From contig NW_003314355.1 of assembly GCF_000143415.4 (NCBI RefSeq), forward strand, positions 639,410-703,409: 64,000 bases of DNA. The letters are read 5' to 3'. Shown here piece by piece: positions 40,773 through 51,940 of the stretch (its first letter is position 1; every line of letters starts with the position of its first letter). The stretch comes from Selaginella moellendorffii (taxonomy: Eukaryota > Plantae > Lycopodiophyta). The notes beneath the pieces are model-generated. The model was not told the origin of the DNA. It saw nothing but the letters and a program-made list of their open reading frames with translations, and did not search any database. A program made the translations under genes and the position numbers.

Positions 40773-41920
40773 TGTAAGGAACCAACTCGCCGAGGTGTCG
40801 TAGGCTAAGGGAACCCCGAAAGCATGACCAAAATGACAAAGAGTTCATCGGATGGGACCAAGTCAAAGATCGAGTCCAAGACCGACTCTAGGACCGAGTT
40901 CGAGATCGAGTCCGGAATCGAGTCCGAGACCGACTCGGGGACCGAGTTCGAGTCCGAGTTCGAGACCGAGTTCGAGACGGAGTCCGAGATCCGAAATCGG
41001 GTCCGAGACCGAGTCCGAAGTCGAGTCCGAGGTCGGGCCCGAGATCGGGTCCGAGATCGAGTCCGCGATCGAGTCCGAGACCGAATCCGAAGTCGGATCC
41101 GAAATCGGATCCGAGATCGAGCCAGAGACTAAGTCCAAATACTAATACGGGTCAAGGGGTGAAAGCCCAAAGCGTGCGTCCCCCAGGGGGGGGGGGCTGC
41201 AGGGGGTTCCAAAAGTATAGTAGGGATAGTGAGGTCCAGGAACCAGTTTTGAAGGGACTCTCCAGTTGGGCTTCCAAACCGACTTGAGGTTGGGACTGGG
41301 ACTAAGGGGCCTTGGGTGGGAGTGAGCATGGACTTGGCTGGTGCCGGAGGGGCCATCCAAGGAAGTGCTCAAGAGCAGCTCCCACTCCCGAAAGGGAAAC
41401 CGATTGCGGTGCTCCCGGCTCATGTGGAGTGGTGCCCCACTTGAGTACCATGCGGCTCATTGGTCCTCGCCCTTCCAAGGGGCTTGGGCCTTCCTTCGGG
41501 ATGGAAGTGGGGGGCGAGAGGTACCCATACCGGGCCGTTAGGCCACGGTGTTTCGCCCCGGCGTCCCGAAGCAAGTGTTGCACTCAAGACTTGGGATTTA
41601 GAGGGTCCCATGATCAAGTCTTGTGGTACCAAGGGATGTTAGGAACCTGGAAGCTTGGTGTGCTTGGCTGCTTGTGCTTGCGGGGAGTGTAGCCGAACCT
41701 TAAGTCCAGTCTAACCCGGGGAGGGGGATTGGGAGTGATTTGGGAATCCGTGGAAGGATGGCTAACACTCCGTTGCTCGTGCAGTGAGTAGCTGAAACCA
41801 AGTAGGAGCTGGTACCATAGGCGAGAACCTTGGCAAGGGAACTTAGCAAAAGCCAAGGCAGTGTTGGACGGATAGACGAGGTAAGCTGGCAAATTGGAAA
41901 GGAAAAAATTGTGGCTTACA
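40773..41920 (+). repeat. 5' LTR
   Basis: TGTAAGG...CTTACA; matches 47159-48306 except one G/A difference seen by eye. Confidence 0.97.
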
Positions 41921-41979
41921 ATTTGGTATCGGAGCCTTTTCCTCAGTTCTAGCGAAGGATAGAGGCGGATTGCTGGGAG

Positions 41980-44900
41980 ATGGCAAGGGCAGGGCGTAAG
42001 CGAACCCAGGCGGAGACGGAACCTCCGCCAGAGCTGGAGCCTCCGGTCGAACAAGAGGCTATGGATGAGGAATCCTTGCATGAGGAGGACTCCAGTGAGG
42101 AAACCTCCAAACAGGAGTCCGGTGGCGAGGTTCGGTCGTCCAAGGCTCGATTGGACGTGCTAGAAGGACAGTTGGCACAGACCAATGCCCTGCTGGAAAC
42201 TCTCGTACGCAAGCTAAAGCGTGACGAGAGGCGGAAGAAAAAGAAAAAGACTGCGGATGCTGGCAGCGCAGAAGGTGCGGATCTTTCGGCCGGGACTGAG
42301 GCAAAACCAGACAAGGTCGAACAGACCGAAGTGGAATCAGTCCCTCAGGCAGTTCCCAAGTACAAACCAAAGCCCCCACCGGTCTTCAAGGGAGTGAATG
42401 ACTATAAGGTGGTGGAGGATTGGTTTTACGATATGGAGGACTACTTCCGAGCGTTGCGGTTACCAAGCTCGGAGAAGGTCCCATGTGCAAAACCATACTT
42501 GGCAGATAATGCCAAGTCTTGGTGGAGAACAACGGAGGCCAACGAAGGACCGGTGGTCACTTGGGACATGATGAAGGCGAGGATCCGCGCAACATATGTT
42601 CCTCCGAATGCCACTCTGCATCTGAGGGATGAACTGAGTAGGCTGAAACAGACAGGAACCATCCAGGAATATGTGAATGGGTTCATGGCAAAGAGGATAC
42701 TTGTCACGGACATGGGGGATATGGATGCGTTCCATGCCTTCATATCAGGTTTGCAAACCTGGGCTCGCGGCGAGGTGATGAGGTGGAACCCGACCAACTA
42801 CAAGGAAGCGTTGGATGCGGCCATCAAGGTGCATTTCAACGATAACCTGCGAAAGGGGAACACGATGGGGTCGGGATCCACATTTAGCAAAGGGGCCAAA
42901 CCAAGGGGAACGTATAGCAAGGGGAAATTCAAAAGGAGTTTCTCTAAGAATGAGTCCTCGGGGTTCCGGAAAGGCAAATCCGGTGGCCAGCGAGCGAGTA
43001 CGTGGGGGAGTCAAGCGAAAAAGGACAAACCCACGGATAAGAAGGTCAAGTCGTATAGCAGCGTGGGAAACAACGTATGCTACAACTGCGGCGAAGCGGG
43101 ACACTTCTCGAGGGAATGTCCCTACCCGAAGAAGGCCAGAGCCAATATGGCCATCAAGTCGGGTGAAGTCCAAACTGAGGTATGTGATCCAGTCCCTAAC
43201 TCAAAGTTACTCATTACACGAGCAACTTTGGTAGAGAGTCGTTCGCGACATCTACTAGCCCTCCGAGGGAAGCTCGGAGGTAGCTTTGTTAAGATCCTTA
43301 TTGACACGGGTGCTTCGGATAATTTTGTGGCTGCAGACATAGTCCGGCAAGCCGGACTAACGGTGCAGCGGCTAGGCGAACCAAGGACTATAGAGTTTGT
43401 TCAGGGTAGCCAAAGCACCGATGAGGTACTTCGACAAGCGAGAGTCGAAGTGGGGACATGGAAAGTGGACATGGATTTCACCGTCTTGGATATGGCGGGA
43501 TTTGACGTGATCTTCGGAATGGATTGGTTTAATCGGTTCGTGGTAGCCCTGCATGGACAAGGTAGGAACCTTGTGGTATTGGCGAATGCCCAAGGAAGAA
43601 GATCTAGGGTGGAGGCCCAGGATCTAAAGGTAGGGCAAAGCAAGGCCAAAGAGTCATGCTTGAACCTGGTGTCCACGAGAGGACAACTCACTAAAGGAAC
43701 TAAGGCAGCCTTTTTGTGCTTACTCTCGGTGAAGAGTGACAAAAAGACAAGAACGGAAGAAGTGCCTTTAGTGATCCAGCGAGTGTTGGACCAATTCCAG
43801 GATACCATGCCGGAGGAGCTACCGGCGGGGTTGCCCCCCGCACGACCGATAGAACATAAGATTGAGCTTGTCGAGGGCGCTGAGGCGGTGGTTCGTCCCC
43901 CCTATCGTTTGAACGAAAAAGAACTCAAGGAGCTCAAGTGCCAACTAGAGGAGTTGGTGGGCAAAGGGTATGTTAGGTTGAGCAAGTCGCCGTATGGGGC
44001 GCCGGTATTATTTGTGAAAAAGAAAGATGGATCTATGCGCATGTGCATAGATTACCGGTTGCTCAACAAGTATACCAAGAAGAACAAGTACCCGTTGCCA
44101 AGGATTGAGGACCTGTTCGATAGGTTGGGAAAGGCAAAATACTTCTCGAGGATTGACCTAAGGTCAGGATACTACCAGATCAGGGTAGCCGAGGAAGACG
44201 TTGAGAAGACAACCTGTCGAACGAGGTATGGGAGCTTTGAGTTTTTGGTGATGCCCTTTGGGCTGTGCAATGCGCCGGCAACGTTTTCGGCGTTGATGAA
44301 CCACGTCTTTGTACCCTATCTGGATCACTTTGTGGTCGTCTATATTGACGACATCCTGATCTATAGCGAGACGCTAGAGGAGCATGCCGAACACTTGGCG
44401 AAGGTGTTTGAGAAACTAAGGGAACATAAACTGTATGCTAAAGAGAGCAAATGTGACTTTGCTCAGCAAGAGGTAAAGTTTCTCGGGCATGTGGTGGGCC
44501 AGGACGGGCTCAAGGTGGACCCGGAGAAGGTCCAAGCGATCCAGGAATGGGAGCGACCATCGAATGTACATGAGTTGAGGGCGTTCTTGGGGCTATGCAA
44601 CTACTATCGAAAGTTTATCAGACACTATTCGAGAGTAGCCCTACCCTTAACGGATCAAACGGGAAAAGGGAAGATGGTATGGACAGCGGAATGCGAGGCG
44701 GCATTCGTCCACCTCAAAGGGAAGTTGAGGAAGGCTTCGGTGTTGGCATTACCGGACTTTAGTAAGGACTTTGAGGTAGACACGGATGCTTCGGACTTTG
44801 CGTTAGGCGCAGTTTTGAAGCAAGACAACCATCCAGTAGCGTTCTTCTCGAAGAAGCTGGACAAGGCTCAACGGAAGTGGCTTGCCCACGAGAAGGAATT

Positions 44901-46752
44901 GTTTGCGGTGGTCAAGGCGCTCAAGGAGTGGCGACACTACCTTGGGAGACACTTCAAGGTTTACACGGACAATGTGGCAACGAAACACTTCTTGTCACAA
45001 CCCGACCTGAGAGGGAAACAAGGTCGGTGGGCCAATGCCTTGGCCGAGTTTGATTGCGAGATTCTGTACAAGCCTGGGAAGAGCAACATCGTGGCAGATG
45101 CGCTAAGTCGAAAAGCGAGCTTGAGGTTGGCGATCTCCAGCGCAACAGCAACCTTCTGGGACGATGTGCGGACAGCATATGAGAACGATGGTCTAGCACA
45201 AGAAGTGTTGTTGAGGAATCTAGAGGCACGGGAAGCTCACCAGAGAGGTGAGCCGCCAACGGAAGAGAAAACGGGCTATGCGGAACGCAATGGACTCATT
45301 TATTACAAGCAAACGAGGGTGTATGTTCCAGAAGGTGGACTAAGGAAGGTAGCCTTAGAAGAGTGTCATGACGGACCTCTTGCGGGACACGGCGGAGTGC
45401 CCAGGACGATGGGCTTACTCAAGAGGAAGTACCATTGGCCAGATATGGCTAAGGACGTCCAAGACTATGTAAAGACATGTCCAACATGTCAGCAGGTCAA
45501 AGCCGTGACTAAGGCTAGTGGGGGCTTGTTGCAAAGCATCCCCATTCCAGATCGTCCGTGGAAATGTCTCACGATGGACTTCATCACGGGACTACCCCCA
45601 AGCGAGGGGTTCGATGCGATATTCGTGGTGGTGGACCGATTTTCGAAGATGGCACATTTCATACCCACCACAACGGAGGTGGATGCGGAAGGTGTGGCGA
45701 AACTGTTCTTCGAACAAGTGGTTCGAGTGCGGGGAAGGCCAGAGGAGATTATCTCAGACCGAGATAAGATCTTCACTAGTAGGTTCTGGAGGACCCTCCT
45801 GGAACAGTATCGCACCAAGTTGAAATTCAGCACAGCCTATCACCCACAGACAGGTATGGGGTATTAAGTCAAGTTTGGTGGTCCTAACACTTCTTGACAG
45901 ACGGACAAACGGAAAGGGTGAATAGGCAGCTGGAGGATTATTTGCGATGCTATGTCTCGGGAGACCAGACCGATTGGGTAAGTCATTTGGGACTTGCGGA
46001 AATGTGTTATAACAACTCACCACATTCGAGTATCGGGGTGAGTCCATGGGAAGTCATCAATGGGCGAGCTATTGAAGGTCCTGTGGAACTCGGCGTGGCC
46101 GAGTATCATGGAGAGTTACCCGCAGTGGAGGCATTCACGGCGGAAAGACTCAACATTTGGAATCTAGTGAGGGATTCCTTGGAACGGGCTCAACAAAGGC
46201 AAACCAAGTACGCGAACCTAAAGCGCCGGGACGTAGAGTTCCAAGCTGGGGAGAAGGTGTGGCTGAACACCAAGAACCTTAGGCTACCAAGTGGGATCAG
46301 CCGAAAGTTGACCCAAAGGTAAAAATGCATGTATTCCTGTAAATGAATTGATCTTGAGTTCTTTAAGCAGGTTCGCGGGGCCTTACGAGATTGAGGCACG
46401 AATCGGTAAAGTGGCTTACCGACTCCGACTTCCTCGAGAGATGGGGAAGATGCACCCAGTGTTCCATGTGAACTTACTCAAGCCGTACTTTGAGGATCCG
46501 CTTCGCAAAGACCAAGTAAGACCTTTACCTGAGGTTATCCAAGGGGAAGAGGAATACGAAGTCGAGGCCATCCTCAATGCGCGCAAGAGCAAGCGACAAG
46601 GACGCGAGGTGAGAGAGTTCCATGTGAAGTGGAAAGGATTTCCACACTGCGAAGCAACATGGGAACCGGAGGAGAACCTAGCGAACGCGCGAGATCTAGT
46701 GGAGGAATTTCTGCAAGGCAGAACTCTATGTACTTATGCAAAGTTCAATTAA
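41980..46752 (+). CDS. Gag-Pol polyprotein (Gag, CCHC knuckle, protease, RT, RNase H, integrase, chromodomain); exons 41980-45853, 45901-46318, 46371-46752 give 1557 aa
   Basis: [14 protein letters not shown]; LIDTGAS; YIDD; [13 protein letters not shown]; HHCC zinc finger; TMDF..ISDRD..GQTER (DDE); FAGPY; [10 protein letters not shown]...VKWKGF...ATWEPEENL. One continuous frame only if two GT-AG introns are removed. Confidence 0.9.
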
Positions 46753-47158
46753 AAATATATCAATTTGCAAAGTTGAGCAAGTGGCATATGTTGGGACCCG
46801 AAGGCGCGCCAAAGGTGAGCTAATTAGCATGGGTTAGCTAGGTTGACCAGGCGTAGGGAGCTACGCCCGACTCCCTGCGGGGATGTCGAAACCGTAGACG
46901 TATTCTACGGAGGTTGGGTTCGAGTCCCAACCCCCTAGTAAAGCAAGGCTGGGTTCAAGTCCCGACCCCATACTAGGGCGTGGTGAGGGGTGGAGTATAG
47001 GGACACCTATATTCCGTTGTCATGAGCTCTTGGCCGGGGAGGCTAACTTAGGCACACCGCTAAGTGGGGGGATGCCCCCGGAGACATGGTCAACAAGTCG
47101 TAGGATAAAAAAGAGACGTTCGATGTGGGCATCGAACTTCTTCTATGGGTGGTGGAGT

Positions 47159-48306
47159 TGTAAGGAACCAACTCGCCGAGGTGTCGTAGGCTAAGGGAAC
47201 CCCGAAAGCATGACCAAAATGACAAAGAGTTCATCGGATGGGACCAAGTCAAAGATCGAGTCCAAGACCGACTCTAGGACCGAGTTCGAGATCGAGTCCG
47301 GAATCGAGTCCGAGACCGACTCGGGGACCGAGTTCGAGTCCGAGTTCGAGACCGAGTTCAAGACGGAGTCCGAGATCCGAAATCGGGTCCGAGACCGAGT
47401 CCGAAGTCGAGTCCGAGGTCGGGCCCGAGATCGGGTCCGAGATCGAGTCCGCGATCGAGTCCGAGACCGAATCCGAAGTCGGATCCGAAATCGGATCCGA
47501 GATCGAGCCAGAGACTAAGTCCAAATACTAATACGGGTCAAGGGGTGAAAGCCCAAAGCGTGCGTCCCCCAGGGGGGGGGGGCTGCAGGGGGTTCCAAAA
47601 GTATAGTAGGGATAGTGAGGTCCAGGAACCAGTTTTGAAGGGACTCTCCAGTTGGGCTTCCAAACCGACTTGAGGTTGGGACTGGGACTAAGGGGCCTTG
47701 GGTGGGAGTGAGCATGGACTTGGCTGGTGCCGGAGGGGCCATCCAAGGAAGTGCTCAAGAGCAGCTCCCACTCCCGAAAGGGAAACCGATTGCGGTGCTC
47801 CCGGCTCATGTGGAGTGGTGCCCCACTTGAGTACCATGCGGCTCATTGGTCCTCGCCCTTCCAAGGGGCTTGGGCCTTCCTTCGGGATGGAAGTGGGGGG
47901 CGAGAGGTACCCATACCGGGCCGTTAGGCCACGGTGTTTCGCCCCGGCGTCCCGAAGCAAGTGTTGCACTCAAGACTTGGGATTTAGAGGGTCCCATGAT
48001 CAAGTCTTGTGGTACCAAGGGATGTTAGGAACCTGGAAGCTTGGTGTGCTTGGCTGCTTGTGCTTGCGGGGAGTGTAGCCGAACCTTAAGTCCAGTCTAA
48101 CCCGGGGAGGGGGATTGGGAGTGATTTGGGAATCCGTGGAAGGATGGCTAACACTCCGTTGCTCGTGCAGTGAGTAGCTGAAACCAAGTAGGAGCTGGTA
48201 CCATAGGCGAGAACCTTGGCAAGGGAACTTAGCAAAAGCCAAGGCAGTGTTGGACGGATAGACGAGGTAAGCTGGCAAATTGGAAAGGAAAAAATTGTGG
48301 CTTACA
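47159..48306 (+). repeat. 3' LTR
   Basis: TGTAAGG...CTTACA followed by TSD ATCCG. Confidence 0.97.
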
Positions 48307-49714
48307 ATCCGAGTACGACACATAAACAAGATTAGGAATCTAAATTTGGACAAGGTCAGATGCCTTATATTGTTCACAAAATTCCTATGGTGGAAATGTT
48401 GGAAATTCTTAGTAGTCAGGTGCAATGTAGTGAATACTGATCTGGCATTGATGTGGAAGGTCATGAGTTGGTGAGGTAGCCTAATGATGGCACTTCTTTG
48501 GGGGGATAAGGAGGAGTTTTAGGGAGGCTTGAGGGTGGATCTTGGAGGAGACAAGATTGTCCTCCTCACTTAGTTTTTTCAGCTCCTAGACTCCTCATAG
48601 GCTTTGTTGTAATATCCAGCACATTTTACTAGGGAATCCCATTTTTCATGGCATGATTGGTTCACCATTCCCCCCAAGAATGGGTGACCCGGGCGTTAGC
48701 CTAGCAAGTGCATCTGGTGGGGTGGGCGAGCCTGAACTGTCTTAATGGGCACATGGTCATCCTGTTCCAAGGTCATCCTGAGAACTGAGACTATTTGAAA
48801 GAGACATAGGCCCCAGATCTAAAAGCTTAATGTCTATGTAGCTCAGTTGGAGTTATGCTGCTTCATCTTCGATAGCTCTTTCACCTATGCCAGGAAATCC
48901 CCAGTGCAGCCTAAAAACAAACAAACAATCAGCAATGAGTAATTAGAGAAGTCACCAGCTGTCAATATGCCCTTAGCTTGCATGGCTGCAGCAAGCAACT
49001 TCATGTTCCTATACTTGTCAGGATCCATTCTAGCTGAGATAGCAATGGCATTGAGTTGTGGCTCTCTGAGATTCTTGAGTTCTGTGGGCGACAGTCACAC
49101 TGCTGCAGCCGCTGCAGACACATCAGGCGATGGTCGAACTGGCAGACAGCTAGCAAGTGCTGATGGAGCTGGTGGAACTGGCAGACAGCCAGCAACTGTG
49201 GCATAGCATTCCTCCCTTTTGAGTGCAATGTCGCACAAGAGATTGAGTTCCTTGGTCGGCAGCAACGCATCCAGGGCATCATCAAAGGACCTGATGTGCA
49301 GCGTATATGGCAGGACACCGAAGCATGCTCCACTACAATGCTGAGTAATACTGCCACCCTTGGGAGCTTCATCTTTGCTCGTCAGGCATATAAAGGCGAA
49401 GTGCAGCTTCCATTCCTTCAAGCCCGAGGGGATCCACTAGTTGATCATTTGGATGCTCATAAACCTGTCCGCAGAATGCAAGTGCTTGTCTAAGCTGGTG
49501 GTGACCTGCAGCGCCACCAAATGAAGCTGGCCAGCCATGTCCCTGTATACTACAGCCAGTCAATGTCTCCAAAGTTGAACTTGGTGGGGAAGAACACAAT
49601 GCCGTAGCCATGAGTAGGCAGCTCCTTCAACAGGTTTGGAGCAGTCCTGAAGCATTCAGCTTTCAGTTTGGACAAATCCAAGTAAGGAGCAATCCTTATT
49701 CCCAGCCTGGATAC

Positions 49715-51940
49715 CATTGTTGGTCCCGACCGCGTTCGGCCGGAACCCCGACCACTACCAGACAGCTCCGTTTGGTGATTCTGTTCAGCGATTATAATGG
49801 TGATTGTGCTCGCAGGGGCTAGATTTCCGATGCTGCTGCAACTATCACCATCACCACTGCATCTCCACCACTTTGCTGTCCTCTTGCTGCTATGGAGCGA
49901 TCTATAGCTCTACAGGGCGACACTCTCCAGTTGGTTGGCCTCCACTTTCGATTGAGTGTAGAGCAGCTCGCTAAGGCCTTGCAAATCACTCAGTCCGCGA
50001 CACTTGAATTGTAATTTTTGCCCTAAAATTCCAGTGATTTCAGAGATTTGTTTCTAGCGATTCTAGCGATTCTAGCACAATTGAGCAATGGTGCCTAATT
50101 GGGCATGGTCCTATGTTACCAAGTTCACTCCTTATGCTTCCGGCAAAAGAGTTGGGTGTTGGAAATGTAATTATTGTGGAAAAATGTATGGTGGTCCATC
50201 GAAACAAATCAAGGCGCATCTTGTTAAAATTTCTGGGCATGACATTGAAACATGTAGTGCTTCAAACATTCCTCTTCATGTTCAAAACCAAACTCGCCAA
50301 ATGTTTATGGAACAAATCGCAAATGCCCCTTTATCTTTACCTTCTACAGCAAATCTACAGAGTGAGCATTTTGATGGGGCATCTACTTCTGGAGCTGGTA
50401 CACAAAGTGTTAGTCAATTTCAACTTATGAGTGTTTCTAAAGGCCATGAGGGATCATTTGTTAGTCAAAAGCAAATGCAAGATGGCAACATTGGGGAAAT
50501 GCTTGATGATGCAAGAAACATGAACTTAGATGATGCGATATCAAAGTTCATTTTCTTGAATGCCATACCATTTAATGTTGTGAAAAGCCCATATTTTCAT
50601 GTGATGATCGCAACTACTTATAATGTTAGACCTAGTGCTGCATTGAGGATTTTTGGTTACAAGAAGTTTCATATCACTCAACTCTGTCATCACTATACTC
50701 TAATCAAGGAGAAGCTAGCTATTGTGGACTATTGTGAAGTGGTGATGAAGGAACCAATTACCAATTGGGCAGAAATAAGCTGGATATGCAAGCAACTTTG
50801 CACGGACGTGGTATCTCCTTGATTAGAATATATTGACAAGTGAGCTGAGTAGTATGAAGCTTCTTGTAACCAAGAATCCTCGATGCAGCACTAGGTCAGA
50901 CATTACAAGTGGCTACGATCATCAAACGAAAATATGGGTTTTTCACAACATTAAATGGTATGGTATTCAATAAAATGAACTTTGATATCGCATCATCTAA
51001 GTTCATGTTTCTTGCATCATCAAGCATTTCCCCAATGTTGCCATCTTGCCTTTGCTTTTGACCAACAGATGATCCCTCATGGTTTATAGAAGCACTTAGG
51101 TTGAGATTGACTAGCACTTTGTGTACCAACTCCAGAAGCAGATGCCCCATCAAAATGCCTACTCTGTAGATTTGCTGTAGAAGGTAAAGATAAAGGGGCA
51201 TTTATGATTTGTTCCACAAACATTTGGCAAGTTTGGTTTTGAACATGAAGAGGAACGTTTGAAGCACTACATGCTTTAATGTTATGCCCAGAAATTTTAG
51301 CAAGATGCACCTTAATTCGTTTCGACGGACCACCATATATTTTTTCACAATAATTACATTTCCAATGCCTAGCTCCTTTGCTAGAAGCATAAAGAGTGAG
51401 CTTGGTAACATGGGACCATGCCCAATCAGGTGCCATTGCTCAATTGTGCTAGAATCGCTAGAATCGCTAGAAACAAATCTCTGAAATCACTAGAATCGTA
51501 ATTTCCATTTTAGGGCAAAAATTACAGTTCAAGTGTCGCAGACTAAGTGATTTGCAAGGCCTCAACGAGCTGCTCTACACTCAATCGAAAGCGGAGGCCA
51601 ACCAACTGGAGAGTGTTGCCTTGTAGAGCTTGGTATGCACGCAGCTCCTATAGGCTATAGCCATCTTGGTCAGATTTGATGTAAGCTTGCTGGGCTGGGC
51701 ATTTGTGCATGGATGGATCGCTCCATAGCAGCAGGAGAACAGTAAAGTGGTGGAGATGCAGTGGCGATGGTGATAGCCGCAGCAGCATCAGAAATCTAGC
51801 CCTTGTGAGCGTGATTGCCATTATAATCACCAAACAGAATCACCAAACAGAATCACCAAACAGAGCTATTCGACCGCATTCGGCTGACTGCATTTGGTGG
51901 CAGTCGGGATTCCAGCCAAATGTGGTTAGGACCAACAATG
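49715..51940. mobile_element. Foldback of two truncated hAT-like transposon 5' halves (BED finger + DUF659-like start)
   Basis: Arms ~49715-50711 and ~50814-51940 are diverged reverse complements. Each encodes WAWSYV...WKCNYC...IKAHL...C and DAISKFIFLNAIPFNVVKSPYF. Confidence 0.8.

Follow-up and report, generated by a model that had tools for sequence, protein, structure and literature searches.

An intron within a retroelement should be lost at each cycle from RNA to DNA. Plant LTR elements are generally without introns according to a 2025 review, which, in its available part, names Ogre and EVADE as the exceptions and cites copia cases only for spliced Gag RNA (PMC12786077). In EVADE and other Arabidopsis Ty1/copia elements, an optional intron centred on the protease is either spliced, which shifts the frame and soon leads to a stop, or retained to give Gag-Pol, and the same article, in its available part, states that no such conserved splicing was found in Arabidopsis Ty3/gypsy elements (Oberlin et al., 2017; PMC5580714). 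The available text on BARE1 of barley describes a 104-nt alternative intron at the start of the protease, which leads to a nearly full-length Gag-only RNA, together with separate RNA pools for translation and for replication (Chang et al., 2013; PMC3735527). The available part of a study on triticale describes a single gypsy Gag RNA, which had no intron (PMC7765848).

Splicing is also needed or used by the Ty3/gypsy elements Ogre and CRR, and in Ogre the removal of an intron is required for the full polyprotein, as far as the available parts of the sources describe it (PMC6317226, PMC3735527). Foamy viruses set their Gag:Pol ratio by partial splicing at a suboptimal site, with the difference from the locus described below that the spliced RNA yields Pol and the unspliced one Gag (PMC7828637, available part). 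A literature search, with most subscription papers outside it, found nothing on introns in SM1-Galahad or on a Gag-only splice in chromoviruses, and the supplement text of PMC3350952 and PMC6317226 gave 0 matches.

SM1-Galahad, placed in the Galadriel clade by the paper that described it (Novikov et al., 2012; PMC3350952), is 7.5 kb long and has LTRs of more than 1 kb (TG..CA, with a G run), a 13-bp tRNA-Met primer site, a main frame of 3885 bp (1295 aa) and, downstream of it, two short frames of which the second encodes a chromodomain. That study found no intact copy, and the strings 'intron' and 'splic' have 0 occurrences in its text (PMC3350952). The sister family, SM2-Galahad, has one frame of 1577 aa and is so without integrase introns (PMC3350952).

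Anatomy and family of the element

The window, that is, the whole stretch of 64,000 nucleotides of Selaginella moellendorffii DNA analysed here (contig NW_003314355.1, positions 639,410 to 703,409), contains a complete LTR retrotransposon of 7534 bp at 40773-48306, delimited by the sequence and by repeats within the window; all positions below are those of the window, and all features lie on the plus strand. The 5' LTR (40773..41920, 1148 bp, TG...CA) is preceded by ATCCG, and the 3' LTR (47159..48306) is followed by ATCCG, a 5-bp target-site duplication. The two LTRs differ by a single mismatch, at 40974, and the insertion is therefore very young. The 5' LTR has an 11-G run (41186-41196), a purine-rich tract (47147-47157) precedes the 3' LTR, and a 13-nt primer-binding site lies at 41924..41936, which we assign to the tRNA-Met type from the description in PMC3350952 and the consensus for such sites. 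Both LTRs also have an array of units of about 12 nt (40840-41160 and 47226-47550), which in the 5' LTR is followed by the G run and by a TATA-like site (41214).

A single frame is open from the ATG at 41980 to the stop at 45865-45867 (3885 bp, 1295 aa in the ORF list), in agreement with the original prediction that gag and pol share one frame. According to the open reading frames and a Pfam scan, it encodes gag, a CCHC knuckle, protease, RT, RNase H and the integrase core. The gag part up to the splice donor takes up 41980..43179 (400 codons), with Retrotrans_gag at residues 173-259 and the knuckle at residues 365-381; the stretch 43337..45853 encodes the remaining protease, RT and RNase H, followed by the zinc finger of the integrase and its core as far as intron 2. 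Two shorter frames lie 3' of the main one, and the last encodes an SH3-like domain and a chromodomain (last exon, 46371..46752). Ribosomal frameshifting or read-through between gag and pol was rejected, as there is no stop or change of frame there.

The gag-PR-RT-RH-INT order, the C-terminal chromodomain and the flanking LTRs are those of a Ty3/gypsy chromovirus, and in the Pfam scan the integrase follows RT-RH rather than preceding RT as in Ty1/copia. In its size, LTR length and G run, 13-bp tRNA-Met site, 3885-bp frame and two short downstream frames, the element matches SM1-Galahad of S. moellendorffii, an assignment made by the published description and not by sequence identity to the consensus. 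In a quick RT tree of 80 rows with no labelled references, it sits on a long end branch, the nearest group consisting of loci L001, L005, L062 and L018.

Elsewhere in the window, two large inverted duplications were observed. One, in 49700-51950, is about 90% alike and contains what is presumably a fragment of a BED-finger-like transposase; the other, at 54750-61600, is of about 1.4 kb and 92-97% alike, with arms 4-6 kb apart, and includes a gene (55340-56170) that we take to be ribosomal-protein-S3a-like.

Introns of the leader and the integrase

Eight sequencing runs out of 23 listed were compared with the element, five of which cover or border the donor site at the gag/protease junction. 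For runs X1 to X4 the RNA status is a software guess (X1 and X2 belong to study P1, X3 to another study and X4 to a third), X16 to X18 are RNA on record, and the kind of X10 is not on record. The X1 contigs cover nearly the whole interior of the element and differ from the window in 170 of 4621 aligned letters (96.3% alike); the expressed copies in the contigs thus differ by about 4% from the window copy, which is itself not their source. Compared over 41600-47100, these contigs have four joints, all GT..AG, of 66, 157, 47 and 52 nt, which correspond to introns 0 to 3.

Intron 0 (41881..41946, 66 nt; joint 41878^41945, cut +2) lies in the leader and covers the final 40 nt of the 5' LTR together with the primer-binding site. 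In foamy viruses, the major donor is upstream of the primer-binding site. The intron 0 joint is found in X1 (side 110) and X2 (side 99), both of study P1, and the intron is retained in X3, X10 and, from 41918, in X4. X3 keeps intron 0 yet shows spliced intron 1, and strict coupling of the two splicing events is not shown. The creation of a start codon by intron 0 was rejected because the upstream ATGs are identical with or without it; the leader holds seven short upstream ATG frames. On their upstream side, contigs of X3 and X2 reach beyond 41780 by 534 and 477 letters; if they are colinear, RNA starts would fall at about 41246-41303. Separately, one X1 contig and raw RNA reads from X16-X18 align to the LTR piece 41602-41745 with 6 other letters and leave the element for other sequence at 41745, as expected if an LTR fragment at another genomic site is part of a transcript or its start.

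The original prediction also mentions two introns in the integrase, and both are seen as contig joints. Intron 2 (45854..45900, 47 nt, GT..AG; joint 45848^45896, cut +5), found in an X1 contig and in one raw RNA read of X16, interrupts the integrase core and holds a stop, and the third catalytic residue, Glu, lies behind it, 35 residues past the second Asp. Intron 3 (46319..46370, 52 nt, GT..AG; joint 46316^46369, cut +2, in an X1 contig) is located in the C-terminal part of the integrase, before the SH3 domain and chromodomain identified by Pfam. Retention of intron 1 with splicing of introns 2 and 3 gives a computed Gag-Pol of 1557 aa, with the integrase triad at Asp1200, Asp1260 and Glu1296. 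The unspliced frame stops at 1295 aa, short of the catalytic Glu, and therefore unspliced RNA cannot encode a complete integrase. The integrase tail published for SM1-Galahad as extra ORFs (PMC3350952) is here composed of exons, with all frames open. As in Ogre, intron removal is required for the full polyprotein, but the available sources place the Ogre intron between two frames, whereas here introns split the integrase core (PMC6317226, PMC3735527). From gag to the integrase core the frame is open unspliced, and splicing of the Ogre type, joining gag-pro to rt, is not needed.

Among the best 80 of 564 distant loci, those with a recognisable motif have an uninterrupted integrase in 41 of 46 cases at the position of intron 2 and in 43 of 47 at that of intron 3, where three of the four exceptions read as motif variants. 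Since the integrase is contiguous in most relatives and SM2-Galahad has a single frame, introns 2 and 3 look like gains of the SM1-Galahad family. A conserved donor before the primer site was not found in the 8 of these 80 loci that hold such a site (best matches 4-6 of 9).

The guessed RNA status of the runs, together with the ability of retroelements to copy spliced RNA, leaves room for the joined contigs being DNA from a deleted or processed genomic copy instead of a product of splicing in live transcripts. This reading is very improbable: all four joints are GT..AG, the intron 2 joint is present in a raw X16 RNA read, a copy without intron 0 would lack its primer-binding site, and a processed copy would itself prove earlier splicing there. 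X10, in which 114 contigs with many variants cover all 30 bins and which looks like multi-copy DNA, shows no joint.

The optional intron at the gag/protease junction

The original prediction had placed a 55-nt micro-intron just behind the CCHC knuckle, beginning at a strong donor (GAG/GTATGT, with G at 43180), containing a CTAAC (43196-43200) and ending in the TAG at 43234, with the next AG at 43236. These letters are present, and on paper splicing to 43234 indeed removes 55 nt and shifts the frame into RVVRDIY-stop, giving 407 aa, while splicing to 43236 removes 57 nt in frame. The donor is also strong: it is one of the five best U1 matches (7/9) among the 329 GT dinucleotides in 41600-47159, three of these five being joints found in contigs, and the contigs use it. 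The acceptor is a different one. Contigs join 43179 to 43337, never to 43235 or 43237, and the real intron, intron 1, is 157 nt long (43180..43336, GT..AG), optional and open in frame.

The joint of intron 1 (43177^43335, cut +2) is present in X1 with a side of 255, and X1 is the only run that bridges it strictly. In X3, compared over 41780-43520, the shorter flank of the same joint measures 28 letters, less than the 31 required by rule, and the contigs of this run fork at the donor: one ends at 43179 and two start at 43150, of which one is retained (43150-43312) and the other is spliced to 43337. In X2, contigs stop at 43179 and resume at 43335, with zero depth between these positions, a break pattern expected from a fork and rejoining at intron 1, the joint itself not being listed. 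The retained form is also represented by an X4 contig (43085-43328). Thus, the donor at 43180 is real and used, and spliced and retained forms are both present in the assembled contigs, which give neither levels nor phasing of the isoforms. Of the three outcomes foreseen for this donor, retention is seen, and 43179^43337 takes the place of the junctions 43179^43235 and 43179^43237. An X10 contig (43200-43451) has one other letter, and the difference at 43404 is listed at the depth of that contig; therefore, the acceptor and the stop match the window in it.

A functional switch based on acceptor 43234, or on 43236 in frame, could still be argued for from the motifs, as CTAAC is 35 nt before 43234, and from the splicing of introns of 47, 52 and 66 nt in the same element; moreover, contigs drop rare forms, so that a minor use of 43234 could escape. 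Yet a joint from 43179 to 43235 or 43237 is absent from the eight runs, five of them covering or bordering the site and the six contigs of X3 included, and the same method detected skips of 47 and 52 nt, so that one of 55 or 57 nt in a compared contig would be listed. The retained X3 contig differs in 2 letters, as many as the 28-nt piece it has in common with the spliced contig, which means that the expressed copy probably has the AG at 43234 unchanged and that this AG is skipped nonetheless. The two rejected acceptors (43232..43236) are predicted to be buried in a stem, with 43234 fully paired (unpaired probability <=0.03 over 43225-43235), and 43234 is the poorest in T among the acceptors compared (6/22). 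A 55-nt switch is, accordingly, hardly credible as an account of the junction. The raw RNA of X16-X18 (40, 10 and 19 reads on the stretch) has zero depth at the gag/protease junction.

The removal of intron 1 shifts the frame into a TAG (43340..43342) one codon past the joint. The resulting Gag has 401 aa, with the knuckle intact and one residue added, the cut being located 19 codons past the CCHC knuckle, and the start of the protease is deleted together with the codon of its catalytic Asp (43303-43305). If the intron is kept, the Gag-Pol frame stays open, and a fully spliced RNA encodes Gag alone. The earlier idea of an optional intron whose splicing gives Gag only and whose retention gives Gag-Pol is thus supported by both forms in the contigs, for a product of 401 aa instead of the 407-aa protein ending in RVVRDIY.

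With its optional gag/protease intron present in both forms (in runs of guessed RNA status), its stop by frame shift and its whole Gag, the element works like EVADE and BARE1, yet belongs to Ty3/gypsy. It differs from EVADE, a Ty1/copia element, in that splicing there (though not in BARE1) is coupled to early termination, of which there is no sign here within the 763 nt that a spliced contig covers past the joint, although contigs do not show RNA ends, and in its integrase and primer-site introns, of which the available part of the source reports none for EVADE (PMC5580714). BARE1, again a Ty1/copia element, splits its RNA pools by two TATA boxes and the R region according to the available text (PMC3735527), whereas here the split is probably made by the primer-site intron. 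The available description of Ogre has splicing lead to the long protein (PMC6317226), and here it leads to Gag only.

The proposed Gag/Gag-Pol switch and its relatives

Intron 1 has 45 T against 37.0 +/- 2.9 expected from 5000 synonymous-codon shuffles (P 0.007). A branch-point-like TTGAC (43301..43305), which may serve as the branch site, is situated 32 nt before the used acceptor and overlaps the codon of the catalytic Asp, and there is no other AG within the 22 nt before 43336. In a post hoc comparison, donor, YAG and stop occurred jointly in 0.65% of 2000 synonymous shuffles that keep the protein; a stop at this very codon arises by chance in 23% of synonymous shuffles.

The predicted fold of 43150-43370 has a z of -3.97, and 0/200 dinucleotide shuffles and 0/300 synonymous-codon shuffles were as stable. 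Within it, a predicted stem-loop (43330..43369) would pair 43330-43335 with 43364-43369 and enclose an 8-bp hairpin (43340-43359) in which the Gag stop lies. This structure would cover the used acceptor at 43336, with the six bases before its last G paired and the preceding U tract open. Over introns 0, 2 and 3, 120-nt windows (starts 41850-41910, 45840-45870 and 46290-46320) are predicted to be unstructured, with z between -0.6 and +1.9. The element as a whole is rather structured in prediction (mean z -1.25; 35/193 windows with z <= -2.5), and the fold at the junction is a lead on incomplete splicing, not proof of it. Its most stable predicted folds are unexplained and lie at 45390-45509 (z -5.9), 42420-42539 (-5.2) and 42030-42149 (-4.9).

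Intron 1 is most probably a switch between Gag and Gag-Pol, likely yielding Gag in excess over Gag-Pol, and its splicing may set the ratio of the two. Three classes of RNA would be made by such an element: a Gag mRNA with intron 1 removed (401 aa), a Gag-Pol mRNA that retains intron 1 but has lost introns 2 and 3 (1557 aa), and an unspliced genomic RNA, with incomplete integrase, which alone would carry the primer-binding site and all introns. The incompleteness of splicing could come from the predicted RNA structure, which would hide the 43234 acceptor and half hide 43336. Removal of intron 0 would strip the primer-binding site from the mRNAs; spliced RNAs would then not be copied, and so the introns would persist through retrotransposition. 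The published many-copy consensus has the same 3885-bp frame, with intron 1 inside it and its end within intron 2 (PMC3350952), and genomic copies therefore keep introns. Several observations count against the switch. Beyond the acceptor, the spliced X1 contig continues for another 763 nt, to 44099, without sign of an early end, which would leave a long 3' UTR open to nonsense-mediated decay. The divergence of the expressed copies, the guessed RNA status, the strict bridging of the joint in X1 only, the zero depth of X16-X18 at the junction and the intron 0 kept in X3 weigh on the same side. The retained contigs could be pre-mRNA, genomic RNA or DNA, and the structure is a prediction, with 35/193 windows of the element at z <= -2.5.

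The long 3' UTR that the spliced RNA seems to retain also fits a cryptic or host-imposed splice of 157 nt, which would inactivate pol or mark the RNA for decay or silencing with no benefit to the element. The splicing of cryptic introns feeds the silencing of Tf2 in fission yeast and of Cryptococcus transposons, as described in the available part of PMC7175516, and a joint that shifts the frame meets an early stop by chance (the 23% given above for this codon). Such an origin is nonetheless unlikely, since the cut 19 codons past the knuckle leaves Gag whole plus one residue and removes the catalytic Asp, the T enrichment exceeds the need of the protein, introns 2 and 3 already must be spliced for the integrase, and there is no frameshift or stop between gag and pol.

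Close relatives were not found by protein searches with Gag (5 matches, 29-31%) or with the 1295-aa frame (36 matches, the best-scoring at 42%), and a Gag-PR locus scan of metagenome contigs and an RT scan of viral contigs gave none. The RT scan of metagenome contigs produced distant loci throughout (45-60%, best 80 of 564). Two short, decayed pieces of the family, P0042 and P0062, were present among the best 150 of 7954 matches of a profile-free search; P0062 extends across the junction but carries mutations all along its length, one of them at the protease Asp, and is uninformative on selection. Two proteins from assembled contigs, P0080 and P0092, are Gag-only frames that end 45-55 residues past a knuckle and have no protease, and could be spliced forms or frameshifted copies. 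L001, the nearest single-frame relative with the junction, has no strong donor within 200 nt before the protease Asp (best 5/9). L062 (4040-4250), a decayed copy, has no gag between LTR and protease: its primer-binding site leads directly into the protease frame. L018 is cut and broken at the junction, and neither locus offers a usable sequence there. At this position, no conservation of intron 1 was found in other families.

A candidate for a similar donor was found in a group of 19 loci, which we take to be Tekay-like from their protease motif; 13 are usable, 2 are too short upstream and 4 have no protease match. The Gly located 14 residues before the protease Asp is encoded by GGT followed by A in all 13 usable loci, and in 11/11 once two near-identical pairs are each reduced to one locus; two near-identical loci have a perfect CAG/GTAAGT. 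Among control Gly columns of the same loci, one codon was fixed in 0/16 conserved columns of RT and 0/5 other columns of the protease. The column (L022:2315-2323, and the same column in L002, L006, L008, L009, L011, L016, L019, L021, L035, L036, L060 and L080) is thus a candidate conserved splice donor at the gag/protease junction. A broader proposal may be put forward tentatively, and is perhaps somewhat more doubtful than not: that the element is intron-gated, with all coding RNAs spliced and deprived of the primer site, only unspliced RNA copied and the integrase introns thereby kept, and that a Gag-only splice is general in single-frame chromoviruses, with the Tekay-like donor conserved for it.

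The Gag-only splicing trick has been described mainly for Copia-type elements, and the chromovirus described here shows this copia solution, a candidate route to excess Gag in plant Ty3/gypsy elements with a single frame, with support at the level of the junction. The fixed candidate donor of the Tekay-like loci suggests that a Gag-only splice may be widespread. A family published without an intact copy has copies with all frames open, and filters based on ORFs would miss such elements. With four introns, two of them needed for the integrase, in a young and abundant family, the sorting of mRNA from genomic RNA becomes directly testable.
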